Both the position numbers and the translations under genes were made by a program. Of a stretch of 64,000 bases of DNA, positions 9,008-58,733 are shown piece after piece. The stretch is taken from contig CAZFQS010000003.1 of assembly GCA_964521285.1 (NCBI GenBank), positions 9,749 through 73,748 on the forward strand. The letters are read 5' to 3'. Numbering within the stretch: the stretch's first letter is position 1; every line of letters begins with the position of its first letter. The DNA comes from an uncultured Bacteroidales bacterium (GTDB lineage Bacteria; Bacteroidota; Bacteroidia; Bacteroidales; UBA10428). The notes beneath the pieces are model-generated. The model saw only the letters and a program-made list of their open reading frames with translations, did no database searches and was not told the DNA's origin.

Positions 9008-9592
9008 ATGATTAGCTACACAAAAGATAAACTGGAAAAAATTGGCAATGCAATAATATATTTTACACAAAATATTCCGGATTTATCAAAAACAAAACTT
9101 ATTAAATTATTGTATTTATTGGAGGAATGCTTCATAAAGAAATATCAACTTCCCTTCCTGGATATTGAATTTGAAGTATGGCAAGCCGGGCCCGTTAACA
9201 GGGAAATATTTATTGAATTATCAGATGAACCTTTAATGTTAAAAGATTACATTATTAAAGAGCTTGATGAAGATGCAACATACATTAAACCCAAACAAGA
9301 GTTTTCAGATAATGAGTTTTCAGATAATGAGTTTGAAATGCTTGATTTTATAATCAAATCTTTCGGAAACAAAACTGCCGCTGAATTGGTCAACCTAATT
9401 CATAAAAAAAGTTCACCCTGGTATATCATTGCCGAAAGAACCGGATTACTAAGGGCTTTTAATGACGGTTTATTAAACTCATCTGATATTAAAATTGATT
9501 TAAGTGAGTTTTATTGCGATAGCAAAAAGACAAGTGAGCAATATAGAGAACAAAAAATGTTTAACCGGTTTGCTCAACAGTTCTCTATTTAA
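9008..9592 (+). CDS. Panacea-domain (DUF4065, SocA/PanA-like) antitoxin
   Basis: KLIKLLYLLEECFIKKYQLPFLDIEFEVWQAGPV matches the hallmark KLxKLLY..(F/W)xAWxxGPV segment of DUF4065. Confidence 0.7.
   Translation: MISYTKDKLEKIGNAIIYFTQNIPDLSKTKLIKLLYLLEECFIKKYQLPFLDIEFEVWQAGPVNREIFIELSDEPLMLKDYIIKELDEDATYIKPKQEFSDNEFSDNEFEMLDFIIKSFGNKTAAELVNLIHKKSSPWYIIAERTGLLRAFNDGLLNSSDIKIDLSEFYCDSKKTSEQYREQKMFNRFAQQFSI
9299..9334 (+). repeat. 15-bp in-frame tandem repeat (GAGTTTTCAGATAAT x2.4; EFSDN-EFSDN-EF) inside the PanA-like gene
   Basis: Direct reading of 9299-9334. Confidence 0.9.
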
Positions 9593-9786: not shown

Positions 9787-10554
9787 TCATGGTTTAAAAT
9801 AATAACCTTTACCATCGCAAACCAGACAATCAGGGATTTGTCCTTTACACATGCATTCAAATGCATTTTCGGGTAAATAGTTTTGATTTTTTTTCTTCTC
9901 ATTGATAAACAAATCTATACCCAGCCAATCATCCCAGCTTATCCATCCTTTTAATTTATAAGCAATGTTTGGGAATGCATAAATGTTCTCAGGCTTTTTA
10001 TATTTATTCAATAATCCTTTACAATAATTTATCCATTCGTTATATGATTTTAGCTTTAAATTCCTGATGAATTTTCTTGTGGTTTTGAAATTTTTAAAAG
10101 CAATTCCGGTTCCTAACCAGTCTTCCCATCCTTTCCAGCCTTTATTGCAATATTCAAGATCAGGTTTTACGGGTATAGTTAACCCATATTTTTCATTAAT
10201 AGAACTACCCTGCTTTATGTATTCCTGCCAGTTAGAAGTATTTTTTAATCTTAAACATCTTACAAAATCCCTTGACTCCCGGAATGATGAGTATTGTTTC
10301 CTGTACTTTTTATCCATAAGCCAGTCACTCCAGCCACGCCAGCCTGTGTGTCTGTATATTTCATCAGGATTGGGAGGAATATTCGCAGGCAGGGTATTAT
10401 TAAGCTTACCCTGTATAAACTTGTTCCATTCCTCTTTGTATTCTAAATTAAGCGTTCTTACAATTTTTCGTGCCTCCTCAAATGATAACCATTTACTCCT
10501 ATTTGGGGAATCCCACAAACCAGGTGATTTCACATTGGACTTTTCAGAACACAT
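9787..10554 (-). CDS. repeat protein: three ~60-aa units each ending GW(x)(G/S)W(x)DWL(G/M), plus a C-terminal CxC..CxxCxGxG zinc-finger-like tail
   Basis: Units end YRHTGWRGWSDWLM, YCNKGWKGWEDWLG and YKLKGWISWDDWLG. The tail is CMCKGQIPDCLVCDGKG. Reminiscent of 'integrase repeat-containing' annotations, but no recombinase domain is visible. Confidence 0.6.
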   Translation of the reverse strand: MCSEKSNVKSPGLWDSPNRSKWLSFEEARKIVRTLNLEYKEEWNKFIQGKLNNTLPANIPPNPDEIYRHTGWRGWSDWLMDKKYRKQYSSFRESRDFVRCLRLKNTSNWQEYIKQGSSINEKYGLTIPVKPDLEYCNKGWKGWEDWLGTGIAFKNFKTTRKFIRNLKLKSYNEWINYCKGLLNKYKKPENIYAFPNIAYKLKGWISWDDWLGIDLFINEKKKNQNYLPENAFECMCKGQIPDCLVCDGKGYYFKP

Positions 10555-10825: not shown

Positions 10826-11188
10826 TTAAATAGAAGAAAGAAAATTTTTAAGGTCGTTTTTATTAGTAAACGAAGTAATGGCTACATGATCGTAATCATT
10901 GCAGTTAAACCTGTCTGCCGACAGGCAAGATTCCTGTGAATGTTGAACTGCTTTAAGCATTGAACTGACATTTTTATTTATATGCTTAAATTGCCATTTA
11001 ATGTCAGCTGTTTTCAGATATTTTAAGAACTCATCGGCAAATGACCGGGATATAAAGGTGATATTGGTGAAGTCAAAAATATAACGTTCCTTAGCTTTCA
11101 GTTTAACATTTTTACTAAGCTTATTAATAGCCCTTCGGGTTGAAATATGCGAAGGGAAAAAGTCCTGTATGTATACTGTTTGCTTCAT
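10826..11188 (-). CDS. STAS-like DUF4325 domain protein
   Basis: 120 aa. FDFTNITFISRSFADEFLKYL matches the core of DUF4325. Confidence 0.6.
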   Translation of the reverse strand: MKQTVYIQDFFPSHISTRRAINKLSKNVKLKAKERYIFDFTNITFISRSFADEFLKYLKTADIKWQFKHINKNVSSMLKAVQHSQESCLSADRFNCNDYDHVAITSFTNKNDLKNFLSSI

Positions 11189-11247: not shown

Positions 11248-11376
11248 TTAAATCCTTTTGGTGTTATTTTTGGTATTCTTAAGGCAAGCATCGTGCCATT
11301 CCACACCTTCCACAATCCTTATTTCCTCATCCATAAGGCCGTAGAGCTGGTAGACTATTTGATCAATCTCAGAAAG
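11248..11376 (-). pseudogene. remnant C of a methyltransferase C-terminal tail (LSEIDQIVYQLYGLMDEEIRIVEG...), in frame directly after the DUF3800 stop codon
   Basis: Own translation of the minus strand. About 70 percent nt identity by eye to the genuine tail at 15294-15372. Confidence 0.7.
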
Positions 11377-12306
11377 TTAAAATACTAACCGTTGCTGGCC
11401 TGACTTTTGCTCAATATAATACAGGATTCTCCTGGAATAGAATTGATTTTTCAACCTTCTAATATCACCCAAGACTGTTTTTTCTAAAGGGAAAAAACTT
11501 ATCATAATACGGTTATAGTATTCAAATTGGCTGTTTTTATTCTTTGGATTGTCAATAATTCTTTTAAACAAGTCAACATACAGATCAGCTAATTCTTCTC
11601 GATATTTTGAGCTTCCACTTTTTTTGATACCATGAATAATGCTTGTGCTTACACCCAATAAAACATCACATAATTGAATTAAATTTGAACACCTATCTTT
11701 TTTATGATCTTTAGGTAGAAAGGTAATTTTGTTGCAATTGAATAGAATGGTTTTATCTTTTTCCAGTTTATAGAAAATATGCCGGGAAAAATAGAGATGG
11801 TTTTGCTGCTGACCTTCCTCATGAAATATGTTTTCGACAATAATCTTTCTCCCACCGAAAAATGTTTTTAAAGCATATAAAAGAGTGCTTCTAAAGAATC
11901 GATTATATTTACTATTGAATTCGTCGTCTGTATTGAATTCTTCTCTAATCAGATAAGAATCATTTAACCCAAGTATATAGGAATAAAATTTCCTTCTGCT
12001 TTTATTGGGATTAAGGATATACTCAAACCATCGTTTACAAATATTTTTTGTATCAGCGATTCTTATTTCGCACCAATGCACTATTTTATTGTTCTTTTCA
12101 TAATAATTGGAATTTTTGTTAAAGTTGCCTATAAATCTTTCGTATATAATGTCATCAAGCAAAGGATGGTCTATATCTTCGACAACTATCCCGATATAAT
12201 TCCATACATTGTTAGTGTAAGGACAGAGCTTCCCCTGAACTTCATCTGCATAGATATTGATACGAATTGGGTCCTGATGATACTCGTTCCCAAATAAATC
12301 CCTCAT
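11377..12306 (-). CDS. DUF3800-like protein
   Basis: 309 aa. N-terminal INIYADEV and distal ITFLPKDHKKDRCSNLIQLCDVLLGV resemble the DUF3800 DE...QxxD pattern. Assignment is by eye only. Confidence 0.5.
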   Translation of the reverse strand: MRDLFGNEYHQDPIRINIYADEVQGKLCPYTNNVWNYIGIVVEDIDHPLLDDIIYERFIGNFNKNSNYYEKNNKIVHWCEIRIADTKNICKRWFEYILNPNKSRRKFYSYILGLNDSYLIREEFNTDDEFNSKYNRFFRSTLLYALKTFFGGRKIIVENIFHEEGQQQNHLYFSRHIFYKLEKDKTILFNCNKITFLPKDHKKDRCSNLIQLCDVLLGVSTSIIHGIKKSGSSKYREELADLYVDLFKRIIDNPKNKNSQFEYYNRIMISFFPLEKTVLGDIRRLKNQFYSRRILYYIEQKSGQQRLVF

Positions 12307-12311
12307 TATTA

Positions 12312-12383
12312 TTAACTCTTAACGATTTTAATTTCTTCCTCAGTCAGGCCTTTAAGTTGATAGACCATCTGGTCAATCTCCCG
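12312..12383 (-). pseudogene. remnant B of a methyltransferase C-terminal tail (REIDQMVYQLKGLTEEEIKIVKS*)
   Basis: 23 codons preceded by an in-frame TAG. 50 of 57 nt are identical to the genuine tail. Its stop lies 5 nt before the DUF3800 ATG. Confidence 0.8.
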
Positions 12384-12405
12384 CTAAAGCTTGTTTTTTC
12401 AAAAA

Positions 12406-15297
12406 TTATCTAATGTTATATTTATTTTTTCTTTGTTCGAATGCGACCCTTCCTCCATCCAAGATTTCACAAGCGTGTTCACACACGCCTTGAGATTTGA
12501 GTGTATCTTTACATTTTTCGTCTTTTGTTTTTGTATATTCAAGACTACCAGTAAGATAATTGAATTGTCTCCCATCTATATTTTCTCTATCAGTTCCATG
12601 CCTATTCGCAATAATTACCTGCTCAGAATCTGATCCAATTGCTAGATTTGCATTGTGACTTACCATAATAATCTGTCGTTCTTTTTTCTTTTTTTTCAAA
12701 AATGGAACAATATCATCGTAAATTGACCTGCTATCCAAATCGTCTTCCGGCTGATCAATCAACAACGGCCAAATATCTTCGGATTCTGCAAGTATTAACC
12801 TTAGTAGGAACAACGCTCGTTTCCCCGGTGTCATTGTTGGTTCAGAAAATCCACCAATTTTATCTCCTTCCATTTCGGCATTAAAGAGAATTTTTTCGTT
12901 CAGTGTTAAAACATCTCGAGCAACCTGTATTTTTTCATTCCCCTTAATTATTTTTTGCTCACCTGAATACAGAGCAGATAAAAAATCACCTGGGGTTTCT
13001 CTGATCTTACCGATAATCAATGTGCCACTATCAATGAAATTAGATTTTCCCTTGATGTATATTTTTTGCGTGACTTCCTCAAGGTTTTCATCAAACCCAT
13101 ATTCCATTCCAAATTTAATACCCTCAATAGCGCTCTGATCTGCGCTATCTATATTTGTTCCCAATTCTTTTATAAGAGTATTTCTTTTATCCATACAAGA
13201 TTTGATGACTTCCTCACATTTTTCTAACTTAACTTCCAAATTTTTCTTTTCGATCGCCGTCTCATTGATTTTTTTAATTTTTTCTTCATGCTGGTTTAAT
13301 CTTTGAACATGCACCTCCAGTTCAACATTTTTCTGATATTTCTCGATAAGATGTTTATTTTTCCCCTTAATTTCTGAGGTAGTTTTCTCCAAATCCGACT
13401 TCTCTTTTTCGATCATTCTTTTATAATATAGAATCTTCTTATTGACATCTTTCAGAATCCCATCCTCTTTTTCCTTCAAGAACATACTAATTGCATCTTG
13501 GAGACCCTTCGGTAAACTTGCCAACGCTGGAGAAAGAGTAATCTTTAATTCATTAAAAAAATGCTGTTCTTCAGAAACATTAGAAATTTGTGAGATTTCC
13601 ATATTTATTACATCTATTCTACCCGCATGTTTTAATAGATCAGCATTAATTTCTTGATACTGCTTTAATTCTTCATTGCTCAACTGATTTTTCTCTTTCA
13701 AATTTTTTATTTTTAATTCAATCTCTTCTTTCACTTTTTCAATGGCTTCCTTATTTCCCAGATTCTTAAGTTGCTCGTTAAGTAATTTGATAGATTCAGA
13801 AAAATCAAACCAATTATCAATTTGACCCGAGATTTGCTGATTATATAAACCTATATTTTTTTCTGCTTGTTCGTACTTAATTTTAAAATCAGGGAGAACT
13901 TTAAACAAAACGGGTTTGATTTTTTCTTTGATTTCATTTGAATTTTTACTTTCCTTAAATAAGTGATTCTGGGGGATGTAAACAATTTTCCCTGGGCTTT
14001 CATCATTTGATTTGCCATTACCCCACTCAATTGAATGTTCAATATTTATTTTCTTCCAGTGATAATCTTCTCCTTCTCCCGGACCTTCAACCAATTCTTC
14101 GGCCAGTTCTTCATCGACAGAATGTGCTACATAAGCAAGTAGCGCTGATTTGCCTGAAGACCGGCTCCCTATAATTGAACAAAAGTTTTTATTAAACTCG
14201 ATTTCTTCAGGAAAATCATTTGTATTGGTAAATCGAATCTTTGATATAATTTTGTATCCATCTTTTTGATCAGGCTCAACCGGGTTTATTTTAACACGTT
14301 CACCAGGTTCAGGCTCATAGATAATTTGCTTTAATCCTTTAAAAGTTGGGTCGGCTTTGATCCATGTATAATCATTAGTTTTTCCACTTGATGGATGAAA
14401 CAGATTTTCTTCAGTATGCGCATCTGAACCCCAAATGCACGGCTTATAATTCCTAAAACGATTAAAGATTTCATCTTTTGGTGTATCTTCTTTTTGGCCC
14501 AACAAGAATTGGATATCATTATCATCGTTAGAAAAGCACACATCAGATAAATTCAATAGATTCTGTCTTATGTTTCCAGCTCGGGACAAATCCTTTTGCT
14601 TGCCCTGCCAATTAAAAGCAGATAGACCACCCGCACCTTTGTTCGCAATGATTATCAAATATTTATCATCATTGATCCCGGATTTCTTCAAGATCTTTTT
14701 AAATTTCTCAATACCATCATCGAAAATAGAACTAGAGAAAGTAATTACTTTTAGTGCTTTATTGATTAGAGTGTTCTTCTTTTCATCATTAATAGAACAT
14801 AAATCTAAATTTGCATCATAATGTCCGTTATTTTCTTCAGCGTTCCCAATTCTTATTAAATCATCGGCTTTGCAGTTTAAATCAAAAGACTGGTATTTGA
14901 TCGTTAATTTTTCCAGAAATGAATTTCGAATTGTTGAAGGTAGGATATCAGGAGAAAAAACCACATGAATATTTACAGATTCATTATCACTTGTAAAATT
15001 TTCCAATCGCAATTCGACTACAGGAAAGAGATAAAGCAATATGTCATTGCTTAGTTTTATGCAAGGTCTTATCTTTCTCGAGTCTTTTTCACATTCTCCC
15101 AATAGTCTTTCATAACCATCAACGGAAAAATAGTCGTTGATCCCTACCACCTCTACGTCATGTGCAACAGCTTTTTCTTTAAGCTTTTCAATATATGTAT
15201 CCCAGCCATCAAAGTCATTTTCATAAGAAACAGGCGTATGCACATGCAAATCCCATTTCCGCCATTCAGAACCTTTTTTAAATTTTGTATTATTCAT
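12406..15297 (-). CDS. PHP-domain phosphoesterase fused to an ABC/SMC-type coiled-coil ATPase (Ppl-like architecture)
   Basis: WDLHVHTP..GINDY..GSDAH (PHP metal ligands). Walker A GSRSSGKS. A ~350-aa Lys/Glu-rich coiled-coil region. Walker B/D-loop LLIDQPEDDLD, followed by IIMVSHNANL. The start overlaps the MTase stop (ATGA). Confidence 0.75.
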   Translation of the reverse strand: MNNTKFKKGSEWRKWDLHVHTPVSYENDFDGWDTYIEKLKEKAVAHDVEVVGINDYFSVDGYERLLGECEKDSRKIRPCIKLSNDILLYLFPVVELRLENFTSDNESVNIHVVFSPDILPSTIRNSFLEKLTIKYQSFDLNCKADDLIRIGNAEENNGHYDANLDLCSINDEKKNTLINKALKVITFSSSIFDDGIEKFKKILKKSGINDDKYLIIIANKGAGGLSAFNWQGKQKDLSRAGNIRQNLLNLSDVCFSNDDNDIQFLLGQKEDTPKDEIFNRFRNYKPCIWGSDAHTEENLFHPSSGKTNDYTWIKADPTFKGLKQIIYEPEPGERVKINPVEPDQKDGYKIISKIRFTNTNDFPEEIEFNKNFCSIIGSRSSGKSALLAYVAHSVDEELAEELVEGPGEGEDYHWKKINIEHSIEWGNGKSNDESPGKIVYIPQNHLFKESKNSNEIKEKIKPVLFKVLPDFKIKYEQAEKNIGLYNQQISGQIDNWFDFSESIKLLNEQLKNLGNKEAIEKVKEEIELKIKNLKEKNQLSNEELKQYQEINADLLKHAGRIDVINMEISQISNVSEEQHFFNELKITLSPALASLPKGLQDAISMFLKEKEDGILKDVNKKILYYKRMIEKEKSDLEKTTSEIKGKNKHLIEKYQKNVELEVHVQRLNQHEEKIKKINETAIEKKNLEVKLEKCEEVIKSCMDKRNTLIKELGTNIDSADQSAIEGIKFGMEYGFDENLEEVTQKIYIKGKSNFIDSGTLIIGKIRETPGDFLSALYSGEQKIIKGNEKIQVARDVLTLNEKILFNAEMEGDKIGGFSEPTMTPGKRALFLLRLILAESEDIWPLLIDQPEDDLDSRSIYDDIVPFLKKKKKERQIIMVSHNANLAIGSDSEQVIIANRHGTDRENIDGRQFNYLTGSLEYTKTKDEKCKDTLKSQGVCEHACEILDGGRVAFEQRKNKYNIR

Positions 15298-18200
15298 AAT
15301 GAATTCTCTATAATTTTAATTTCTTCCTCCGTCAGGCCGTATAGCTGATAGACAAGCTGGTCAATCTCCCTCTCCAATCCTCTCGTATCCGCATGCGGAT
15401 TCGCTCGCTTCGTTACAAAGATGCGGTCTACAAGTTCAAGGATTGGCTTTTGTTTTTCATCAGTTGCTTGAACTATGGGAAATTCTTTCACATAGTTGTT
15501 AATCCAGCGGTTTACTCCCATACCGCTTGTTTCAGCAATAAGTCCTAAGTAAAAATAAATCAATCTAGAATTAAGTATGCCAAGCAAATATTTAACGTCA
15601 ATTGCAGACGGGGGTAGTAAAAAATATGCTGAGTTCAATAAATACATTTCGTCTACACATAAAGCAAAACGTCCATTGTCAGTTAATTCTATCCATACAA
15701 TTTTATGTTTCTTAAAATCATCAAAGAATGCGACTGCTCTTAAGTTTGTCCAATGTTGACCTTGAGCACCGCGTTTTTTGAATGATTGTCCAAATCCGTC
15801 GAGATATTGATATATGTCAGGATAATCCTTCTTAACATTCACTCCATTCTTTGTGAGCAAAATATATAAATTAGGAAATTCATACCTATAACGAAAAATG
15901 TCTCGCCCTCGTAAAATCGGCTTAATTATTTCAGCGTTTTTGTGGTTTAGTATAATAAATTCTTTTCTTTTGTTTTCATCGATAATAAAAGCATCGTTTT
16001 TGCCCGTTGCTAAACCAAGCCGAATTTTTGCCCCAAGTTGCTCAAGAGTTTTTCCAGCCTTCTTAATTTTCTTTTGTATTAATACTTTTTCTGTCTCAAT
16101 TAGACTCCATGATTTTAATTCAAATATTTCTTGAGTGTAATAAAAACCCCTTGCTGTTACATATCCTGCAAAATTCTGAATGTCACCAGAGAAGGGTTTA
16201 TTAAAAACAAAACACTTTCTGCCAATTTTGTCTTTTGTTGAAATAAGGATTGCAACGTTTACAATCGCATCTTCAAAAATCTGGGCATCCTCAAGATTTA
16301 TAATACCAAGAAGTTCATTTTCATTTCTTAGTAATTTTCTGAGCGGTGATCCATATTCGGCTCGCAAGTATGAATTTGATGTAATAAAAGTCGAAATACC
16401 TTTTTTGCTTTGTAGGTTAACTTCTTTCTCAATAAAGTAACAATAAATATCCGCAAATGGTTCGTAAGAGCGGTATTTTTCTTTCAGCAAATTTTTACCA
16501 ATTGAAATTTTGTCGTGGCTAATATAAGGTGGATTAGCAATCACCACATCAAACCCTCCCTTCCTATGAAACACCTCCGAAAAATACACCTCAAAATCAA
16601 ATTCCTTATGCCCATTGGTAATCTTACAGATCAGCTCATCAATCTGCTTTTTGTATTCCTGCTTTTTGGTCGGATTGGTTTCGTTGAAATATAGCGGTTT
16701 TAAGTTTTCCAGTTCTGTGAAAAGCTGGTTGTTGAACAGATTTTTCTCAACGCCCAGCAGGGAATTTCCGCAAACAATTTTATAATCGAGGTTGGGCAGG
16801 GGCTTGATGTTTCTAATGTCCTCCTCATCCACCATCAGCGATAGCCATAACCGCAGTTTTGCAATTTCCACTGCGCCGGGGTCAATGTCCACACCGTAGA
16901 GGGAATACTCTATGCACTGGCGTTTGAAATCGTAGTGCTTTCTTTTTTCTTTATTGGTAATGAAAGTGGTTAACACCGTTCTTGCCTTAACAATTTCGTT
17001 CATCATGCCCAAGGGGAAGGCACCGGAACCAACTGCCGGGTCGCAGACTGTAATCTCCGCAAGTTTTTGATCAATGAGTCCTGGATTTTTATGTATACTT
17101 TCAGGAAGCATTAATTCATAAACAGATGTTTTTTGTTTCCCTTCGTTTATTTTTTGTTTCTTGATCAATGCTATCTCTTCATTCTCACTGATATGCTCAC
17201 CCATATGAATCAGCATTTCAATATCTTCTTTTAAAATTCCTGTACCAGTATTGTGTTCAATCGTCAGATCCAACTGTCCTTTTTTTATTTTATTACCGAA
17301 CATATCTAAATTATTATCACCAAATTTTTCATAACTTACCTTATCATTATTCAGTTCATTAAACAGATAATTTATTAAACTCTGCTGGCACATGTAATGC
17401 ACGATTTCGCGTGGAGTGTAATACACACCGTACTGCTTGTTAAATTTGGTTTCTTCGCCTTTTTTTCCGCTCTTTAAGGCTTTTTTGTACTCCTCAAAGT
17501 TGTCGGGACGGATGGCGTTGAATTTTTCATAAGCCTTACCCAGCAGTTCAGGATCAATGGCGACTTCTTTTTCAAGCGGCTCGTCTTCTTTCACTGTAAA
17601 ATTGTAGCCGTCAAAAATGTCGAAAATACCATCGCCAATATCACCTTCACTCGTCTTTCTTTTATTTGAAAACAGATCGTCCGGTAAACATATGTCAGTA
17701 TGAACCCAGTTGTAATTGCTAATGGGTTCAAACAGCCCACCATTTAAGAATGGGATCTTACATTTAAAATGATCGTTCCAATGATCAATATCTGACCGGT
17801 CTCTTGACAGTGCATCATAAAAGAGCGGCTCTAAAATGTCGTTGAAGAAATTCCTGTAATCACCATGTTTTTTCTCAAACAGCTCTCTTAAAAATTGTTT
17901 GGAACCTGTTCCCCATTCAGCATCTCTTGCCACACCAAACCAGCCCTTTTTCTGGAGAAAATAAAGAAAAACAATCTGTCCCAGCAGTTTCTTTGCAAAG
18001 GCAACAGTATTTATGCCTTTAGTTTCAAAATCGGCATGGATTTTAGTATCGTTTTTAATTACTTTATCCAGCGCTTCTTTGGTGCGTATAAACAGCTCAC
18101 GGTATTTGATAAAAAATTCTCTTGTAACTGTTTCAATATTGAAGGCTTCTTCCAGCACTGTAAGGGTCGGATTGTGTTCATCGTCTGCCAGAATTTTAAC

Positions 18201-18716
18201 CAGCCGGCTCTGGGCGGTATGGCTGTTTTCATTGGTACCAACGAGGAAAGACCAGCGCCGGGCAGGGGTGAACTCTTCTTTCACCTTGGTTCTGCCGGTT
18301 TTGGTTTGCTCGAATTTGTATTCCATCTTAACCAGCGAAAACCGCCAGTCGCATTCATCCGGTGAGACAAAAGCAACCAAAGCAGCATCCTTTTCATTTG
18401 AACTGCCGTATTTCCCCTGTAAATATCCGGCAACAAAATTGCGCTGACTGGAACGTGCATGTTCAAGCGAAGTTTCCTTTTGCAATTTAATTATCAGTAT
18501 ATCAATTCTATTCTCTCCATCATTAAACTTGCCAATCCTCTCAAATGTGCTGATAAACTGCTTGTAAGCATCGGGAATATATTGACCTTGCCGCTGAGGG
18601 ATATAATCCTCTTCAATGCGATTTAACAGATTTTTAATGAAGCCGGTAAATCGTTCCTTATTAAAAAAATTTTCAAAAGTCTTTTCGATGATTTTTTTTG
18701 CTTGTTGTTTATCCAT
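15294..18716 (-). CDS. Eco57I/PglX-like gamma-class N6-adenine DNA methyltransferase with TaqI_C-like target-recognition domain
   Basis: 1140 aa. Motifs YYTPREIV, CDPAVGSGAFP (motif I) and VVIANPPYI (motif IV, NPPY at 16524-16535). C-terminal tail REIDQLVYQLYGLTEEEIKIIE. Confidence 0.85.
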   Translation of the reverse strand: MDKQQAKKIIEKTFENFFNKERFTGFIKNLLNRIEEDYIPQRQGQYIPDAYKQFISTFERIGKFNDGENRIDILIIKLQKETSLEHARSSQRNFVAGYLQGKYGSSNEKDAALVAFVSPDECDWRFSLVKMEYKFEQTKTGRTKVKEEFTPARRWSFLVGTNENSHTAQSRLVKILADDEHNPTLTVLEEAFNIETVTREFFIKYRELFIRTKEALDKVIKNDTKIHADFETKGINTVAFAKKLLGQIVFLYFLQKKGWFGVARDAEWGTGSKQFLRELFEKKHGDYRNFFNDILEPLFYDALSRDRSDIDHWNDHFKCKIPFLNGGLFEPISNYNWVHTDICLPDDLFSNKRKTSEGDIGDGIFDIFDGYNFTVKEDEPLEKEVAIDPELLGKAYEKFNAIRPDNFEEYKKALKSGKKGEETKFNKQYGVYYTPREIVHYMCQQSLINYLFNELNNDKVSYEKFGDNNLDMFGNKIKKGQLDLTIEHNTGTGILKEDIEMLIHMGEHISENEEIALIKKQKINEGKQKTSVYELMLPESIHKNPGLIDQKLAEITVCDPAVGSGAFPLGMMNEIVKARTVLTTFITNKEKRKHYDFKRQCIEYSLYGVDIDPGAVEIAKLRLWLSLMVDEEDIRNIKPLPNLDYKIVCGNSLLGVEKNLFNNQLFTELENLKPLYFNETNPTKKQEYKKQIDELICKITNGHKEFDFEVYFSEVFHRKGGFDVVIANPPYISHDKISIGKNLLKEKYRSYEPFADIYCYFIEKEVNLQSKKGISTFITSNSYLRAEYGSPLRKLLRNENELLGIINLEDAQIFEDAIVNVAILISTKDKIGRKCFVFNKPFSGDIQNFAGYVTARGFYYTQEIFELKSWSLIETEKVLIQKKIKKAGKTLEQLGAKIRLGLATGKNDAFIIDENKRKEFIILNHKNAEIIKPILRGRDIFRYRYEFPNLYILLTKNGVNVKKDYPDIYQYLDGFGQSFKKRGAQGQHWTNLRAVAFFDDFKKHKIVWIELTDNGRFALCVDEMYLLNSAYFLLPPSAIDVKYLLGILNSRLIYFYLGLIAETSGMGVNRWINNYVKEFPIVQATDEKQKPILELVDRIFVTKRANPHADTRGLEREIDQLVYQLYGLTEEEIKIIENSL

Positions 18717-18819
18717 ATTTGTCTATTAGAGCCGTTGTTGAGCCTGTTAATTTATAAAAAGTACACTATATTGAAATAAATGGCTTTTGTTTTATTCGGC
18801 CATATTCTGATCGAATGGT

Positions 18820-18847
18820 GGCCAATTCGACCAATTACCGGCCAATT
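18820..18847 (-). promoter_or_regulatory. three 8-bp direct repeats G(G/A)CCAATT spaced 9 and 11 bp, in the gap between the AlbA_2 gene and the MTase gene (candidate operator)
   Basis: Copies at 18820-18827, 18829-18836 and 18840-18847, plus a related GGCCATATT at 18799-18807. Confidence 0.3.
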
Positions 18848-20168
18848 AATTTTTAAGTTCATATTTTGCACCTCTTCCCTTTGTGATCGGCTCGGTTAAC
18901 AATCCTATTTTAACTAACTTCCTGAGGTCTTCTGTCGCCGTTGTTTTCCCTACATTATTGATCTTTTGATACATAGAGTTATTAATAGAGCCTTCCCCCT
19001 TTACATACATAACCGCTTTAATTTGTCTTTCATTCAATCCCATTTTTTTAAGATTTTCCAGATTCCATTTGTCTTTGTAGAAAATCACTGTCATGACCCC
19101 ATTTTGCTCATAGAAATCCGGTTCTGGCAATCCACCCTCCAAACACTTTTCAACAATCATGTTAGTACCCCTGCCCCAGGCTTCAATAAAGCCGGCATAA
19201 TAAAAAATGCCCGCCAGCAACTTATTTCTCGGCATGGACAGATGATTCGTTTTAAGCTTTTCCACCGGCACTTCTGGCGGTAAACTGCCGGCATTCATGA
19301 TGATTAGTTTATCCGGATAGACTCTAACCTGGATCTGCGAAAAACCCCAGTAATCTCGATGAATGAGCGCATTAATAATCGCCTCCCGCAATGCTTCATA
19401 AGGATATTCGAGTATATCCCGGCGATGAATGCCTTCATATTTTATATTGCTCAGCAGGTACTTGGTTCGGAGAATTTCCAGCGTATTTTCCAACTGCTGG
19501 AACAGATTACCTTTGACAATATCGGTCGTTTGAATATCGGTATCAGTTAAGAAGCGTCCGATCTTTACATATGCGTGGCTATAAAACCGCTGCGGATCTT
19601 TCCCAAAAAGAAGAATTGCAGCTCGCTTCAAATGTTGATTTTCGATAAGATTTAATTTCTGCAAAATATTAACGAAATCTGTTTCACGGACAATCGAAGG
19701 GATTCGATCAACAGCATATCGCTTAAAATCTTCTATGGTCGGTTTATCGAGAAGATCCAATTCGCCCTTATCGTCAATGGCATCGTCCCAGGTAATACCT
19801 GATTTTTTTATCAGGAAGCCGGACAGCTCTTTTCCTCTTAACTCCTGAATTGTGCTACCGCTTCTGATATAAAATTTGCCATTATATGAAATCGGGTCTG
19901 ATGAAGGAATAATCTTTATCCGGATTATTTCAAGGTCATTTTTCTTTTCTGATTCCACAAAGGGAATGATACCAAGTTTATTACGGATTTTGTTGGGAAT
20001 GTCTTCCAGTAATTTTTTTGAGTTCGCCAGTCCAACATGTTGTCCCTGGTCATTTAATCCAACAATGAGTTGTCCGCCTTTGCTGTTGGCAAAAGCAGAA
20101 ATCACCTTCAGGTGTTCATCTCTCCAGATGCTCTTAAATTCTATTCTATGTGATTCTTTATTGGTCAT
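18846..20168 (-). CDS. AlbA_2 (Schlafen-like) DNA-binding domain + HATPase_c_4-like + C-terminal wHTH protein (often annotated RecG-like/transcriptional regulator)
   Basis: ESHRIEFKSIWRDEHLKVISAFANSKGGQLIVGL is the AlbA_2 signature. EAIINALIHRDY is typical of the HATPase_c_4 part. The start lies inside the helicase 3' end, with GGAGG 6 nt upstream. Confidence 0.75.
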   Translation of the reverse strand: MTNKESHRIEFKSIWRDEHLKVISAFANSKGGQLIVGLNDQGQHVGLANSKKLLEDIPNKIRNKLGIIPFVESEKKNDLEIIRIKIIPSSDPISYNGKFYIRSGSTIQELRGKELSGFLIKKSGITWDDAIDDKGELDLLDKPTIEDFKRYAVDRIPSIVRETDFVNILQKLNLIENQHLKRAAILLFGKDPQRFYSHAYVKIGRFLTDTDIQTTDIVKGNLFQQLENTLEILRTKYLLSNIKYEGIHRRDILEYPYEALREAIINALIHRDYWGFSQIQVRVYPDKLIIMNAGSLPPEVPVEKLKTNHLSMPRNKLLAGIFYYAGFIEAWGRGTNMIVEKCLEGGLPEPDFYEQNGVMTVIFYKDKWNLENLKKMGLNERQIKAVMYVKGEGSINNSMYQKINNVGKTTATEDLRKLVKIGLLTEPITKGRGAKYELKN

Positions 20169-23100
20169 TTGAACCTCCGATTAAATACAAAGACAAAATC
20201 ACTTCCCGTTTGCCGAAAACTGCCGGATTTTGTTCAGCATAATGTTCTTCAAGAAATTTTGCCGGAATATGTGTTTGAAGCACTGCCAAAACCTTAAAAG
20301 GATTGATGATTTCATTCCTAAGACCGTTCAAGGCTTTCAGGGTTTGTTTAGCTGTTTGTTTCGGTATATTGCCTTCCTCAATCCGTTTTAATACTTTATT
20401 AAGATACAATTCCTGATCATCAGTAAACTGCCGGGTATTATTAATAGTTACTTTAAGTATTTTAAGGATTTGTGCTGTGCTTTCCCGCCTGCTTGCTGAA
20501 CCGGGTTTTGGCATTTCCTCAGTAGTTGCAATAATAAAGGCGTTTTTATTTTTATCCAGCATATTGTAGAATTGCTCCTGTAATTTTTTCTTTGGTTCAT
20601 CGGGATTGCTTTCCAGCAATTTTGCCGCAGAGATAAAATCGAGTTCGGTTGCTTCCGCGTGGTCTGTAGCCAGAAAAAACTTTTGTAGTTTACCTCTGCG
20701 GAAATAAGTGAGTAAAGAATCCGTCTGCTCAATGTGATATTTTGCGGTACGGGCTTTTTTAGGCAATCGTTTTATTTTTTCAAACAGGTCAGGGTCATTA
20801 TCGCGAATCTCTTTGATAGTATGAAGATACTTCAAATCACTTTCCGCTGCTTCGTCTTCTCCTTCAAGAGTCTGCTTTGAAATCAATCTATTGAAGAGTT
20901 CGTGTGAACCAATGGGTTCACCTTCGGTTAAAAGCTCGGCATCACCACCCAAAAGGGTCAGAAAGGCATTTATTTTCGCTTCAGCTACCTCTTTAAGCTT
21001 AATCTGGTCGTTGGATTGCGCTGTGGGGAAGAAATTAAAGGTGTAAATAGTATCATGTCTGGTATCCACACGGTTTATACGGCCTACTCTCTGCATCATT
21101 CTTGTCGGATTCCAGGGAATATCGTAGTTAATGACCGTGTTGGAACGGTGCAGGTTTACGCCTTCGGACAGTACTTCCGTAGAAACAAGTATCCTGTGGT
21201 TATCTTTCGGATGACGTGAGCGGACATCAAAATTTTCAATAACCTTGTCACGTGTAGCTTCGCCCGAATCCCCTGTATAGCATAATACGCTACCGGGAAA
21301 TCTCTCATGAAGGTTTTTGTACAAATAATTGGCAGTTTCCTTTGATTCAGTGAATATGATGAGATGATTTTCTTTAAAAACGGATGTTGATGTTAGCTCC
21401 CTCATAAATTTGAGCAACTTCGGGTCACGGTCGATATGTGTCCAGAGCTTTTTTACTTCCAAAAGAATATCATGATCGTGTTGTAAATCGCTTCTCAATA
21501 CTTCATTGAATTCTGTGCTATCGTACCGTTCCGCTTTGCCCTCATCAATAAGGCGCTGCACTGCTTCATCGTCATCGTTCTCCAAAAGCTCGAAAATTTT
21601 ATTTATATGCTTTTTACTCACATAAACATTGCCGTTATCAAATTCCCTGATAAACATCTCATAGGAGTGCAGGAATCGATCCACCGAATTCATAAAGGCA
21701 AAGAAACTGCTTTCAAGCCGTTTGACCAGCAGGATTTTCATGAATCTGCCCATGTTGCGTTGGGATTGACGTTCCAGTTGATCAATCCTGCCCTGATAAT
21801 AGAGCATGGGCATGTAACGGGCATACCTGAACTTCTGAGCAATCAGCTCTATGGTTTTACTGAATATCTCATCCTCTTTTTCATTGAGTTCATAAAAAAG
21901 CGGTGCAGGCTTTTCAACATAGGGAAATTTCAATCCCTGTCTTATAATATCGTTTGAAAAATATTTCTCAATCTCAGTACGGGTTCGGCGCACCATTAAA
22001 TATTTAAGGACTTTTCCCCTGATTTCCCGGGAATTTTCTTTTACAATACTGATATATTTATCATAATCTTTCTGGCGATCCAGTTTTTTCAGTTTCTGTC
22101 CAAGTCTACCAAAAAATCCTTCCAGATCAGGCAGGTTAGGAATAGTGCTTTTCTTTGCCGGCTGGAATAACTTTAACAGGCTGAGAATATCTTTAGGGGC
22201 ATTGTTGTAAGGAGTAGCTGTAACCAGGATTACCCTTTTGCCGCGGCAAATCTCCGCCAATTTTTCATAGGTAACCGTTGTTTCAGTTCTAAAACGGTGA
22301 GCTTCATCGATAATTATATTGGTGTATTTATCGGTCCCTCCGTATAGTAAGTCATCGAGTTTACCAAGTGATTCAAAATCAGCCGGTATGCGAAAATCAG
22401 AAAAAACATTCCGCCAGGAACCGGGATTGGTCTTTTCCAGCAGCACCGGCGGGGCGATGACCAGTGTTCTACCGTCAAGCTGGCCTGCAAGCATAGTAGA
22501 AATGTATGTCTTTCCCAATCCAACCACATCCGATATAAAGACACCTCCGTATTCCAGAAGGATTTTTTTTGCATTTAAAACTGCCTGTTCCTGATATTCG
22601 AGTTTTTTAAACTCCGGCGGGAGATATTTTACAAACACTTCATCTGTCTGGCCAAGTTCATCTTTAAAATATTCATAGAGAAATTTCAAATAAAGCTGAT
22701 ATGGAGTGATATTTTGACTGAGCCATGTTTTTTCCTGGATGGTTTGAATATACTTTTCGCTCACATCAACGGCATCTTTCCATAATTCTTCAAATTTCTG
22801 CCTGGCAAACTCATAATCATTGCAATTTTTCAATTCTACATTAAATTCCAGGTTGTCAATAAGCCCTGCCTGAGTAAAGTTACTTGAGCCTGTAATCACT
22901 CGTCCGGTATCCCTGTCGCCTTCACAAAAAGTCATAATGTAAAGCTTGGCGTGGATATTTTGTGAGGGATAAGCTTTTATTTCCAATTTTTTGCTCCTAA
23001 TCCATTCGATAAACTTAATAACGCCTTCTTCAACTTCTTGTCGGTCTTCTGAATCAATTAGTTCCTTTTCTACAAGCTCTTCCACTCTTTCTTTAGTTTC

Positions 23101-23367
23101 AGCATGCGAAAATTCCATGACCTGCTGCTTTGGCTTATTAGCCCTGACAAGTAAATCATAGGTTTGACGGTTGGCGCTGATACCAATCAATATTCTTATC
23201 TTTTGCGTATTTTCCAGGGATTTATATATGGCATGGAAACCACTGGTATAGAAATAACCCACAAGGCAGTCAAAAAAAGAAGTGTCTTTTATCAATACTT
23301 CAAATCTGTCTCTTAAGGTATAGTTTTTATCGTTTGTTAAAAATGATAAATCAGTATTCATAAGCAT
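20158..23367 (-). CDS. PLD-family nuclease domain fused to an SNF2/DEAH superfamily-2 helicase
   Basis: One HKD motif (NIHAKLYIM...GRVITGSSNFT). Helicase motifs DVVGLGKT, IIIDEAHRFR, LVTATPYNN and STEVLSEGVNL...QRVGRINR. Confidence 0.85.
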   Translation of the reverse strand: MLMNTDLSFLTNDKNYTLRDRFEVLIKDTSFFDCLVGYFYTSGFHAIYKSLENTQKIRILIGISANRQTYDLLVRANKPKQQVMEFSHAETKERVEELVEKELIDSEDRQEVEEGVIKFIEWIRSKKLEIKAYPSQNIHAKLYIMTFCEGDRDTGRVITGSSNFTQAGLIDNLEFNVELKNCNDYEFARQKFEELWKDAVDVSEKYIQTIQEKTWLSQNITPYQLYLKFLYEYFKDELGQTDEVFVKYLPPEFKKLEYQEQAVLNAKKILLEYGGVFISDVVGLGKTYISTMLAGQLDGRTLVIAPPVLLEKTNPGSWRNVFSDFRIPADFESLGKLDDLLYGGTDKYTNIIIDEAHRFRTETTVTYEKLAEICRGKRVILVTATPYNNAPKDILSLLKLFQPAKKSTIPNLPDLEGFFGRLGQKLKKLDRQKDYDKYISIVKENSREIRGKVLKYLMVRRTRTEIEKYFSNDIIRQGLKFPYVEKPAPLFYELNEKEDEIFSKTIELIAQKFRYARYMPMLYYQGRIDQLERQSQRNMGRFMKILLVKRLESSFFAFMNSVDRFLHSYEMFIREFDNGNVYVSKKHINKIFELLENDDDEAVQRLIDEGKAERYDSTEFNEVLRSDLQHDHDILLEVKKLWTHIDRDPKLLKFMRELTSTSVFKENHLIIFTESKETANYLYKNLHERFPGSVLCYTGDSGEATRDKVIENFDVRSRHPKDNHRILVSTEVLSEGVNLHRSNTVINYDIPWNPTRMMQRVGRINRVDTRHDTIYTFNFFPTAQSNDQIKLKEVAEAKINAFLTLLGGDAELLTEGEPIGSHELFNRLISKQTLEGEDEAAESDLKYLHTIKEIRDNDPDLFEKIKRLPKKARTAKYHIEQTDSLLTYFRRGKLQKFFLATDHAEATELDFISAAKLLESNPDEPKKKLQEQFYNMLDKNKNAFIIATTEEMPKPGSASRRESTAQILKILKVTINNTRQFTDDQELYLNKVLKRIEEGNIPKQTAKQTLKALNGLRNEIINPFKVLAVLQTHIPAKFLEEHYAEQNPAVFGKREVILSLYLIGGSNDQ

Positions 23368-23430
23368 CTTTATGTGTAATTCATAGCTAATGTTTACTAT
23401 TCATGTATTTTCTCGATATAACCTCTAACT

Positions 23431-23455
23431 ATATTATATTATATTATATTATATT
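23431..23455. repeat. pentanucleotide microsatellite (ATATT)5, 64 nt upstream of the helicase ATG
   Basis: Direct reading. Five perfect units, followed by degenerate ATAGT ATAAT. Confidence 0.9.
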
Positions 23456-23685
23456 ATAGTATAATAATACTTGTTACCGTTTAACTTTAAATAAATACTA
23501 AATTATTAATCAAATTTAAAAATATTTTAAGTTTAAAAAGCTTACCAGATATTAAATAATAATAAGAATAATTAAAATTAGAACATTGTGATGGTATTAC
23601 ATAAAAACCAGAGGGCAGGAAAAAATTAAGTAAATGCAAGTATAAAAATAATTTTATAATCCTCAGCTCCTTATATCAGCAAACT

Positions 23686-24570
23686 CTAATCCGCCACGGC
23701 ACTTGCGGTAATCACTTCGCTATTCACTTTCTTTACAAGTCCCTGCAGCACATTTCCCGGTCCGACCTCAGTAAATGAATCAGCCCCGCCGGCAATCATA
23801 TTTTTCACTGATTGGGTCCATTTTACAGGTGAAGTCAGTTGTAACTTGAGGTTTTGTTTTATTTTTTCAGGATCTGTAGTAGGTAATCCAGTCACATTCT
23901 GGTAAACCGGACAAACAGTCTCATTAAAAGGAGTAATATCTATAGCTTTTTCCAGTTCAATTTTAGCCGGTTCCATGAATGGTGAATGAAATGCTCCTCC
24001 GACTTTTAATTTTATTGCCCCTTTTGCACCGGCCTCTGTAAGTTTTTTTATAGCCAGGTCAATGCCTTTTATTGAACCTGAAATAACTATTTGACCCGGA
24101 CTATTGTAGTTTGCAGGAACGACAACTTCATTTGTTTCATAGCAGACTTTTTCAACAATTTCTTCTCCAAGACCTATAATAGCAGCCATTGTTGAAGGAT
24201 TAATTTCGCATGCTTTCTGCATTGCCTGTGCACGTTTTGAGACCAGATTAAGCCCGTCTTCAAACGATAAGCCCCCTGCAGCTACTATTGCAGAAAATTC
24301 TCCTAAAGAATGACCCGCAACCATATCCGGTTTAAATTTATCACCCAGTACTTCCGCCAAAATCACTGAATGCAGGAAGATAGCCGGCTGAGTAACTTTA
24401 GTTTGTCTTATATCTTCATCTGTCCCTGAAAACATCAAATCTGTTATTCTAAATCCCAGAATGACATTTGCTTTTTCAAACAGATCTCTTGCCTGGGCTG
24501 AATTATCATAGAGGTCTTTTCCCATTCCCACAAATTGTGCTCCCTGACCTGGGAAAATATATGCTTTCAT
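23686..24570 (-). CDS. fabD: malonyl-CoA:ACP transacylase
   Basis: FPGQGAQFVGMG and the GHSLGEFSA active-site motif. 294 aa. Confidence 0.9.
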   Translation of the reverse strand: MKAYIFPGQGAQFVGMGKDLYDNSAQARDLFEKANVILGFRITDLMFSGTDEDIRQTKVTQPAIFLHSVILAEVLGDKFKPDMVAGHSLGEFSAIVAAGGLSFEDGLNLVSKRAQAMQKACEINPSTMAAIIGLGEEIVEKVCYETNEVVVPANYNSPGQIVISGSIKGIDLAIKKLTEAGAKGAIKLKVGGAFHSPFMEPAKIELEKAIDITPFNETVCPVYQNVTGLPTTDPEKIKQNLKLQLTSPVKWTQSVKNMIAGGADSFTEVGPGNVLQGLVKKVNSEVITASAVAD

Positions 24571-24625
24571 AAATCAGGTTTTAAAATTCCGGGCAAAGGT
24601 AAAAAAATTGAATTAAGGAACCATA

Positions 24626-24685
24626 AATCTCCAAATCAATAATTCTCCAAATCATTAAATCTCCAAATCATTAAATCTCTGATTA
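24626..24685. repeat. 16-bp tandem repeat (AATCTCCAAATCATTA, ~3.7 copies) between folE and fabD
   Basis: Copies at 24626-24641, 24642-24657 and 24658-24673. A partial copy at 24674-24685 overlaps the folE stop. Confidence 0.9.
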
Positions 24686-58629: not shown

Positions 58630-58704
58630 GGGGTCTTAGCTCAGCAGGTTTAGAGCGCTACCTTGACAGGGTAGAGGCCGTGGGTTCGAATCCCACAGAT
58701 CCCA
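58630..58704 (+). tRNA. tRNA-Val (anticodon GAC)
   Basis: Hand-folded cloverleaf. Acceptor GGGGTCT/AGATCCC (one G-U pair). D arm GCTC..GAGC. Anticodon stem CTACC/GGTAG with loop TTGACAG. T arm GTGGG-TTCGAAT-CCCAC. Discriminator A. No encoded CCA. Confidence 0.9.
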
Positions 58705-58733
58705 CTTCTGAACTGTTCTACTGTTAAATTGTT

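Follow-up and report, generated by a model that had tools for sequence, protein, structure and literature searches.

Type ISP restriction-modification (R-M) enzymes such as LlaGI and LlaBIII recognise an asymmetric site, translocate along the DNA in an ATP-driven manner and cleave it upon encounter. In the Type IV enzyme SauUSI, which cleaves as a dimer, a PLD nuclease at the N-terminus precedes an SF2 ATPase on the same chain, and MADS is a set of eight genes, including kinase and ATPase genes, much larger than the gene content considered here. The subject of this work is a minus-strand operon of four genes in a 64,000-nucleotide (nt) stretch of DNA (hereafter the window) from contig CAZFQS010000003.1 of an uncultured Bacteroidales bacterium, which encodes a PLD-SNF2 nuclease-motor (gene 1), a protein with AlbA_2 and HATPase domains (gene 2), an N6-adenine methylase (gene 3) and an ATPase of the TrlF family with a PHP domain (gene 4). 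We consider it probable that the locus is a composite, in which a very widespread, ATP-dependent two-gene R-M-like core (genes 1 and 3) is accompanied by two separately mobile defence genes (genes 2 and 4). An earlier reading of this DNA, made from the letters alone (the sequence-only reading), had proposed a methylation-based system of self/non-self discrimination, and this is indeed what the locus looks like; its four genes had also been taken as one system, and co-conservation of all four is not sustained by the co-occurrence survey described below, with genes 1 and 3 alone found to be near-obligate partners.

Components of this kind have been described in other company. In the Type-2 BREX-related (BR) systems, helicases carry an N-terminal HKD nuclease and an N6-methylase is also present, an arrangement proposed to be R-M-like, and Schlafen-HisK-wHTH proteins were described as "backup effectors" beside BREX and BR cores in at least 1017 taxa (PMC12839542); prokaryotic Schlafens act as tRNases (10.1101/2025.07.24.666596). 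The temperature restriction locus (TRL) of Photorhabdus has the order trlR-trlF-trlG, where TrlG combines AlbA_2 with HATPase_c_4 and TrlF is annotated as a histidinol phosphatase, and loss-of-function mutations in trlG lift the growth arrest at 36 °C (PMC7554251). A pair of a PLD-SNF protein and a Cj0031-like methylase has been mentioned in passing, with neither a name nor a test (PMC9881135), and beyond that mention we found no name for, or mechanistic test of, the PLD-SNF2/methylase pair in the literature.

The gene 1-gene 3 pair and the systems it resembles

A survey anchored on gene 1 covered 83 metagenome or genome loci, 74 of which were assessable for gene 3. In 69 of the 74, gene 1 is succeeded by gene 3: the two are immediate neighbours in 51 loci (no more than 10 nt apart in 45 of them), and one or two further open reading frames (ORFs) intervene in 18; among the other five, four contigs end within a gene-2-like insert and one has no called gene in its short remainder. 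Thirteen of the 74 loci have a gene-2-like insert and 61 have none, and the other inserts include a Bro-N protein. In canonical pairs gene 1 ends in ...SLYLTGE and the stop, with the methylase ATG 2-3 nt further on, and in the window it ends in ...SLYLIGGSNDQ and the stop, with the ATG of gene 2 inside, so that the insertion point of gene 2 coincides with the gene 1/gene 3 junction. No fossil of the gene 1 3' end was found behind gene 2. The pair is also found in S. fumaroxidans and in Brocadia pituitae (with a 187-aa gene in between), and its order is kept on plasmids at 25-36% identity, including relatives on Parabacteroides and Pelobacter plasmids (27-29% identity) in which a PLD-SNF2 gene precedes an Eco57I-type methylase. 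The Parabacteroides distasonis plasmid NZ_OY725763.1 (locus L180, 6204-18787) has the pair at 29% identity, with an AlbA_2-HATPase_c_4 gene directly upstream, an HTH gene on the same side and hypothetical, TIR-domain and AAA genes downstream, and by its gene content this is another elaborated version of the core pair.

Pfam searches with gene 1 identified PLDc_2 (residues 47-196), SNF2-rel_dom/ResIII and Helicase_C, which, together with the motifs GLGKT at 283 and DEAH at 354, corroborates the SNF2/DEAH helicase assignment made from the letters alone. The single HKD motif reported at the same time is approximately right, because the half-site HxK...GSSN is present and the canonical spacing of the D is absent. 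All 81 full-length homologues examined retain HxK...GSxN and GxGKT, and 78 of 81 retain DEAH; the PLD domain is the obvious candidate for the nuclease of the pair. Homologues of gene 1 number more than 7800 at E<=1e-10, and the best 120 of them (77-100% identical) come from Desulfobacteria, Nitrospirota, Brocadia, Bacteroidota, Marinimicrobia and a Methanosarcinales archaeon. An identity of 77-87% across distant bacterial phyla and the Methanosarcinales archaeon is unusually high for a defence gene, and conservation of this degree across phyla suggests rapid inter-phylum spread. In PADLOC the best match was C3a139 (145 bits), described only as "HKD+Snf2", and the partial matches to DrmD, BrxH, DpdE and HmaA covered mostly the C-terminal half, including the helicase C-terminal domain.

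For gene 3, Pfam reported Eco57I (2.6e-39), N6_Mtase and TaqI_C, and the nearest entries in a PDB sequence search were adenine methyltransferases. The motifs DPAVGSGAF (motif I) at 559 and NPPY (motif IV) at 728 and a TaqI_C-like target-recognition domain (TRD) were confirmed as predicted, and the domain searches also agree with the placement of the nuclease-motor and the methylase-TRD on separate chains. Gene 3 has at least 8000 homologues. The variability of its TRD (regional identities in Table 1 are means against 34 homologues) is the pattern that would be expected of diversifying specificity. The N-terminal region contains many invariant residues, among them D72, after which no (D/E)xK was found, and its AlphaFold2 model (pLDDT 74.9) retrieved nothing from the PDB at E<0.01 in a Foldseek search, with matches at chance level only. 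Related domains form 4673 representative clusters at E<=0.001, with at least 1023 (50% identity) at E<=1e-30; in the best 150 representatives the domain is always N-terminal, the full-length members have ~1000-1340 aa, and none is a fused gene 1-gene 3 (helicase-methylase) protein. The motif and fold searches thus give no sign of a nuclease in gene 3, and we propose that residues 1-460 may form a docking or regulatory domain for gene 1.

The PADLOC model REase_MTase_IIG (PDLC03596), which derives from REBASE, matched gene 3 with 1308.9 bits, residues 1-1139 aligning to positions 1-1145 of the 1148 in the profile, and the PADLOC models of DrmMI (103 bits, partial) and PglX scored about tenfold lower. 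Such a full-length match, together with the homology of the family to the Type IIG enzyme Cj0031 (PMC9881135), would be expected if gene 3 were a self-sufficient Type IIG enzyme and the helicase and the other genes mere neighbours in an island; the Eco57I and TaqI_C domains are also common to gene 3 and the Cj0031/Eco57I group. However, the near-obligate, translationally coupled adjacency of genes 1 and 3 holds from 87% down to 25% identity, and gene 3 differs from that group in being nearly always paired with a PLD-SNF2 gene and in its lack of a detected nuclease: neither a PD-(D/E)xK motif nor a nuclease fold was found in residues 1-560, and the Pfam families of the MmeI N-terminal and helical domains gave no match. 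We judge a self-sufficient Type IIG enzyme very unlikely.

The nuclease, the SF2 translocase, the gamma-class N6-adenine methylase and the single TRD of the pair are also the constituents of Type ISP enzymes, and among functional analogues Type ISP comes closest. Here they are distributed over two chains, the nuclease is of the PLD/HKD type (Mrr/PD-(D/E)xK in Type ISP), the motor scores as SNF2/DrmD-like, and the methylase has a family-specific N-terminus of 460 aa; with no single polypeptide and no Mrr-type nuclease, the pair falls outside Type ISP. Type III was rejected as well, with the nuclease of gene 1 being an N-terminal PLD domain and gene 3 being of the Eco57I/TaqI_C kind, not TypeIII_RM_meth. 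SauUSI differs from the pair in that it is modification-dependent, has no partner methylase and belongs to another helicase family.

The statement that the locus fits no named class stands in so far as PADLOC reported no complete system and no MADS model appeared among the library matches; it does not stand for the individual genes, gene 3 being labelled Type IIG and gene 4 belonging to the TrlF family. Among the nine other window ORFs of at least 450 aa (twelve with the three large genes of the operon) and the Pfam-scanned flanking genes we found no PglZ, BrxC/DUF499 or DrmA/DUF1998-like proteins, in agreement with what had been claimed. BREX was rejected, with PglZ and BrxC/PglY not found there and gene 3 scoring 91.5 bits on the NCBIfam model of BREX-1 PglX (cut-off 500) and less on the remaining BREX methylase models. 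Of the gene sets described so far, Class 1 DISARM and the Type-2 BR/Hma systems come closest. Class 1 DISARM shares with the locus an SNF2 helicase (DrmD-like), a PLD protein (DrmC-like) and an adenine methylase (DrmMI-like) and differs in that PLD and SNF2 are fused here; it was rejected, with DrmA and DrmB not found in the window and low scores of gene 1 for DrmD (135.7 vs 610) and DrmC (17.6 vs 133). Gene 1 shares with Hma/Type-2 BR an HKD nuclease N-terminal to a Swi2/Snf2 helicase, and the Hma or DUF499-centred BR class was rejected as well, neither of its defining proteins, the DUF499 AAA+ ATPase (HmaC) and, for Type 2, DUF3780, being found in the window; the PADLOC match to HmaA is limited to the Helicase_C region of gene 1. 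The Pfam listings of six annotated contexts of the pair likewise contain no DrmA/DrmB, DUF499 or DUF3780, the other loci being unscreened for them. In view of the low PADLOC and NCBIfam scores, we therefore conclude that the locus belongs to none of BREX, DISARM, Hma/BR and Ppl (for the latter see below).

If the locus were a Class 1 DISARM or a DUF499-centred BREX-related (Hma/Type-2 BR) system reduced by loss of core genes, the partial matches obtained with gene 1 (DrmD, DrmC, HmaA) and with gene 3 (DrmMI, PglX) would be accounted for, and an N-terminal HKD nuclease is found on Type-2 BR helicases too (PMC12839542). The scores, however, lie far under the cut-offs, DrmA/DrmB, DUF499 and DUF3780 are missing from the window, and the pair is conserved in very large numbers, so that it forms a separate lineage and did not arise by decay; we regard reduction of this kind as quite unlikely.

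Gene 2, TrlF and the slot behind the methylase

Gene 2 matched SLFN_AlbA_2 and the GHKL-type HATPase_c_4 in Pfam and has a C-terminal tail besides. The AlbA_2 signature recognised previously was borne out by the motif E5-x4-E10-x-K12 (Ex4ExK at residues 5-12), and Ex4(E/D)xK is kept in 15/15 gene-2-like proteins from the loci studied here.

Gene 4 was assigned to NCBIfam NF045780 ("TrlF family AAA-like ATPase") with 470.2 bits against a cut-off of 350, residues 8-961 aligning to positions 1-944 of 944. Pfam reported only SMC_N, below threshold, and did not detect PHP, and PDB searches with the single sequence and with a profile returned no matches. The protein contains HVH at 18-20, Walker A (GSRSSGKS) at 377 and Walker B (LLIDQPEDD) at 845, with a long helical insert in between. 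Among homologues the PHP ligands D16, H20, D55 and H111 are nearly invariant and E95, D292 and H294 invariant, and H18 is present both in the window protein and in the homologue consensus. The model of residues 1-345 (pLDDT 81.5, pTM 0.85) matches 3e0f, 9etk, 7ug9 and 3f2c, which are PHP phosphoesterases, RNase AM and PolC PHP, and at the level of the model this confirms the PHP fold of the N-terminus. Motifs, ligands and modelled fold thus all agree with the earlier description of a PHP HxH site and of Walker A and B motifs that lie far apart. The outline of gene 4 resembles a single-chain SbcCD/Ppl-like enzyme, and the combination of PHP and ATPase is common to Ppl, which gave the only PADLOC match of gene 4, a partial one; with 93.1 bits against a cut-off of 1000, membership in Ppl was rejected.

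By domains, gene 4 belongs to the same family as TrlF of Photorhabdus and gene 2 has the architecture of TrlG. The two genes therefore reproduce the architecture of the trlG/trlF pair, here interleaved with genes 1 and 3; the Photorhabdus locus has adjacent trlF and trlG together with trlR, whereas here the methylase separates the two genes, and no trlR-like small gene was identified at the operon.

TrlF has more than 4400 homologues, the neighbours of which vary widely (80 species-representative genomes). R-M components are the commonest class of partner, although still a minority: a pooled Pfam scan of 109 adjacent same-strand proteins found ResIII in 9, Methylase_S in 5, HsdR-type domains in 3-4, Eco57I in 3 and D12 methylase in 3. 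In locus L003 (5719-14531), a Type III Mod-like methylase, accompanied by a HEPN gene, and a Res-like helicase of the HI_1054 family flank a TrlF that shares 63% identity with gene 4; thus TrlF embeds in other types of R-M operon too. Two loci with TrlF proteins 73-74% identical to gene 4 lie in defence islands; behind TrlF at this level of identity come HEPN_AbiV and, in L169 and L170, SIR2, and the search for a gene 3-type methylase there was negative. TrlF is also present on 217 plasmids, 144 of them from clinical Klebsiella and most of these typed as conjugative, and it stands alone in both of the plasmid contexts that were examined. One of them, the IncR plasmid NZ_CP060423.1 of Klebsiella pneumoniae (L182), has TrlF beside an Abi gene and a pair of an ATP-binding protein and a UvrD helicase, Gabija-like by annotation. 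In a Planctomycetia locus with both the pair and TrlF (L008, 12754-14421), TrlF is apparently split in two ORFs and has a large serine recombinase (CcrB-like) immediately downstream, which suggests that this block is mobile.

The PHP-SMC protein (gene 4) had been thought to be hard-wired to the methylase. It is better described as a cassette at a hotspot, given the fossil methylase ends described below and the absence of TrlF from this position in all 34 gene-1-anchored loci with enough downstream sequence (0/34). The gene that follows the methylase in related loci often overlaps it by 4 nt, and the occupants of the slot include an AAA_13/PDC-S06 ATPase with partial similarity to PrrC, a KAP NTPase, RhuM, a small PLD nuclease and two multi-gene sets, namely a short Argonaute (Piwi) followed by SIR2 and an OLD-TOPRIM ATPase followed by a UvrD helicase (Gabija-like). 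By homology, each of these is a defence unit of its own, whether complete or recognised as such, and none belongs to the pair as a subunit. An ABC-type ATPase-nuclease within an R-M operon, with PrrC-like AAA_13 and OLD/Gabija proteins in the same slot, recalls PrrC/EcoprrI, PARIS and the "backup effectors" embedded in R-M or BREX loci; the difference is that the nuclease domain of gene 4 is PHP.

The 3' end of gene 3 is present in further copies downstream of gene 4 (Table 1), the first of which translates in frame with stops on either side. The 309-aa ORF between the two copies is probably an older cargo gene, because a fossil methylase end follows it too. The same order of methylase end, cargo and fossil was found in L171/L172/L174, with a TrlF of 78% identity as cargo, and in 5/24 gene-1-anchored loci (L086, L090, L110, L128 and L158). 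Between them, these five carry an unknown 567-aa gene (in Brocadia pituitae), PDC-S06, Argonaute with SIR2, a Gabija-like pair and an unknown pair. By type of locus, cargo bracketed in this way is counted in the window and in seven others. The fossils share the consensus ...IDQLVYxLYGLTxEEIxIVEG with its stop and stand directly after the cargo downstream of the methylase. From the fossil ends that bracket the cargo we therefore infer that the cargo enters by a recombination that duplicates the last ~20-30 codons of the methylase, and the window would then hold at least two stacked captures, TrlF and, before it, the 309-aa ORF.

Table 1. Features of the operon in the window and fossil methylase ends in related loci (window coordinates unless a locus is named)
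Feature	Position	Strand	Remarks
Gene 1	20158-23367	-	ORF, 1069 aa; core component with N-terminal PLD, SNF2-type translocase and uncharacterised C-terminal ~270 aa
Gene 2	18846-20168	-	ORF, 440 aa
Spacer, gene 2 to gene 3	18717-18845	-	129 nt; equal spacing in the sister loci
Gene 3	15294-18716	-	ORF, 1140 aa
Gene 3, N-terminal region (aa 1-460)	17337-18716	-	mean identity 66-75%; no Pfam family
Gene 3, gamma-class N6-adenine methyltransferase core (aa 546-830)	16227-17081	-	mean identity 63%
Gene 3, TaqI_C-like target-recognition region (aa 831-1100)	15417-16226	-	mean identity 39%
Gene 3, true 3' end (...EREIDQLVYQLYGLTEEEIKIIENSL and stop)	15294-15373 (repeat copy 15296-15373)	-	78-nt direct repeat
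Gene 4	12406-15297	-	ORF, 963 aa
Gene 4, PHP phosphoesterase domain (aa 1-345)	14263-15297	-	conserved ligands and fold match
Fossil copy 1 (orphan, stop-REIDQMVYQLKGLTEEEIKIVKS-stop)	12308-12385	-	between gene 4 and next gene; 81% nt identity to 15296-15373
309-aa ORF	11377-12306	-	bracketed by the fossils 12308-12385 and 11298-11375
Fossil copy 2 (SEIDQIVYQLYGLMDEEIRIVEG...)	11298-11375	-	62% nt identity to 12308-12385
Region upstream of gene 1	23368-23685	-	presumed location of the operon promoter
Fossil in L171	6279
Fossil in L086	19265-19351
Fossil in L090	17472-17531
Fossil in L110	8499-8567
Fossil in L128	10246-10293
Fossil in L158	19665-19745

Layout and flanks of the operon

The four minus-strand genes were found in an ORF check exactly where they had been placed before. 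The 11-nt overlap of genes 1 and 2 (TAA of gene 1 at 20160-20158, ATG of gene 2 at 20168-20166), the ATGA shared by genes 3 and 4 (15297-15294) and the single intergenic gap of the operon, between genes 2 and 3, were likewise as reported, and only the distance from GGAGG to the ATG of gene 2 had to be corrected, from 6 to 5 nt. Chance is of no concern for these observations, because every protein has thousands of homologues. Rfam and tRNA scans found no RNA elements within the operon, including the spacer between genes 2 and 3, and the single RNA gene detected in the window is a tRNA-Val (GAC) at 58630-58705. The numbers of promoters and terminators returned by scans match the shuffled expectation; a sigma-70-like site with 10/12 matches lies at 23477-23448, in a promoter scan that is overall not above shuffled expectation, and the promoter of the operon is likely to be located in the region upstream of gene 1 (Table 1).

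The GC content of the operon (0.36-0.40) is offset from that of its flanks (0.30-0.33), which we count as evidence of horizontal transfer. At the far end of the same sparsely annotated island, a gene for a SocA/Panacea-domain antitoxin (9008-9592, plus strand) has a small ORF alongside (59 aa in L001, 6837-7016), and the two probably constitute a toxin-antitoxin pair. The ORFs at 9787-10554 and 10826-11188 and the 309-aa ORF (Table 1) gave no Pfam, NCBIfam or PADLOC matches. Between the genes for GTP cyclohydrolase I and an FabD-like protein, at 24624-24679, a 24-nt unit (TAAATCTCCAAATCA...) occurs in three overlapping copies with 16-nt spacing.

A function outside defence, with the methylase acting as an epigenetic regulator and TrlF/TrlG as a module that restricts growth under stress or at certain temperatures as in Photorhabdus, has in its favour that temperature-restricted growth, relieved by trlG mutations, is the only experimental phenotype of trlF/trlG (PMC7554251). 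Such a function is at odds with the nuclease-motor partner, the diversification of the TRD, the evidence of horizontal mobility, the SocA/Panacea antitoxin nearby and the presence of Gabija, Argonaute and RhuM in the same slot elsewhere, and we consider it extremely unlikely.

Proposed mechanism, alternatives and implications

In the composite that we favour, gene 3 would methylate the host DNA on one strand of an asymmetric site, and its N-terminal 460 residues may recruit or license gene 1. Gene 1 would translocate along unmodified DNA and cut it when two half-sites meet, by dimerisation or collision; cleavage only upon the meeting of two copies is envisaged because there is one PLD half-site per chain, and the cut by paired half-sites is modelled on dimeric PLD nucleases such as SauUSI. 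The core would thereby correspond to a Type ISP or Type III enzyme that is split over two chains and has PLD as its nuclease. Gene 2 may be a Schlafen-type, RNase-like arrest module (a putative RNase with a GHKL module); such a role is in keeping both with TrlG of Photorhabdus, which causes growth arrest, and with the "backup effector" proposal (PMC12839542). Gene 4 would combine a PHP nuclease with a coiled-coil ABC ATPase and could work on its own, as Ppl does, or process DNA ends made by the core; alternatively it could stand guard over the core in the manner of PrrC and EcoprrI. Most likely, genes 2 and 4 are second-line or largely autonomous effectors that are co-expressed with the core, and are probably not subunits of it.

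Several points weigh against this composite. That the products of genes 1 and 3 contact each other and that cleavage follows collision are steps that we infer. The N-terminus of gene 3 may hide a nuclease, given that catalogues list its family under Type IIG, and by analogy with the trlG/trlF architectures genes 2 and 4 may cooperate. The methylase-TrlF junction recurs in about seven independent loci, with a 4-nt overlap or direct abutment (the window, L171/172/174, L173, L068 and L019); in L008 the two are separated by three genes. The closest relatives of TrlF (77-78% identical) are preceded by a methylase of the gene 3 family with a 4-nt overlap, and in L173 an AlbA_2 gene follows TrlF. Furthermore, in the sister loci L175-L179, which share the chromosomal site and its FabD and GTP cyclohydrolase neighbours with the window, genes 1 and 2 are retained (97% and 98% protein identity), and the ATGA-coupled fourth gene is a TrlF only ~28-30% identical to gene 4, which scores 309 bits on the TrlF model with its 583 available residues; these loci hint at selection for the combination.

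Gene 3 of the sister loci is 75-85% identical to that of the window over residues 1-825 and has a different TRD (38%). At the nucleotide level, identity to the sisters is 97% over 18610-23458 (genes 1 and 2 and the start of gene 3; the block ends at 23458), 85% over 16762-18399 (the N-terminal part of gene 3), 89% over 15245-15368 (the gene 3/gene 4 junction) and 78% over 23698-24571 (FabD), with no alignment in the remainder of gene 3 and in gene 4. From this mosaic it follows that the TRD and TrlF have changed together and that the four-gene layout has stayed unchanged. The mosaic points to a recent exchange of cassette parts between related lineages, and the pattern would fit either TrlF cassettes that were captured more than once or selection that keeps a TrlF together with the methylase.

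The sequence-only reading treated the operon as a single new four-component system, and parts of this survive: the core pair is near-obligate and the layout recurs, but gene 2 is optional and the slot of gene 4 is variable. In its strict form, an integrated system would have all four components obligate and TrlF as a second nuclease physically tied to the methylase. It would explain the tight coupling in the window, the layout kept in the sisters despite a swapped TRD and a divergent TrlF, the recurrent junction (with the AlbA_2 gene of L173 after TrlF) and the frequent occurrence of TrlF within Type I/III R-M operons. It does not accommodate the 61/74 loci in which the pair lacks gene 2, the 0/34 in which TrlF follows the methylase, the complete unrelated defence systems in the same slot, the fossil methylase ends that mark insertions and the stand-alone TrlF of the two plasmid contexts and the defence islands examined, and we hold it to be unlikely. 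More daring than the composite, and in our view a doubtful but not negligible proposition when taken as a whole, is the joint reading that the pair founds an uncharacterised and very widespread class of split, PLD-armed R-M systems, that the 3' end of its methylase is a dedicated docking point for whole defence systems, and that in this lineage the captured TrlF and Schlafen proteins guard the core; in the guard step they would fire upon inhibition of the restriction layer or upon DNA ends made by the core.

If the genes are merely stacked and independent, the locus is an ordinary, tidy defence island. The core pair is in any case among the more abundant unnamed restriction-like modules of environmental bacteria and archaea, and, if established, it would place a two-chain system with a PLD nuclease beside the Type ISP and Type III enzymes and correct annotations as "Type IIG". 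The fossil methylase ends would offer a concrete mechanism for the growth of defence islands around R-M genes, and the link to TrlF/TrlG may offer a defence-based explanation of the temperature restriction locus of Photorhabdus.

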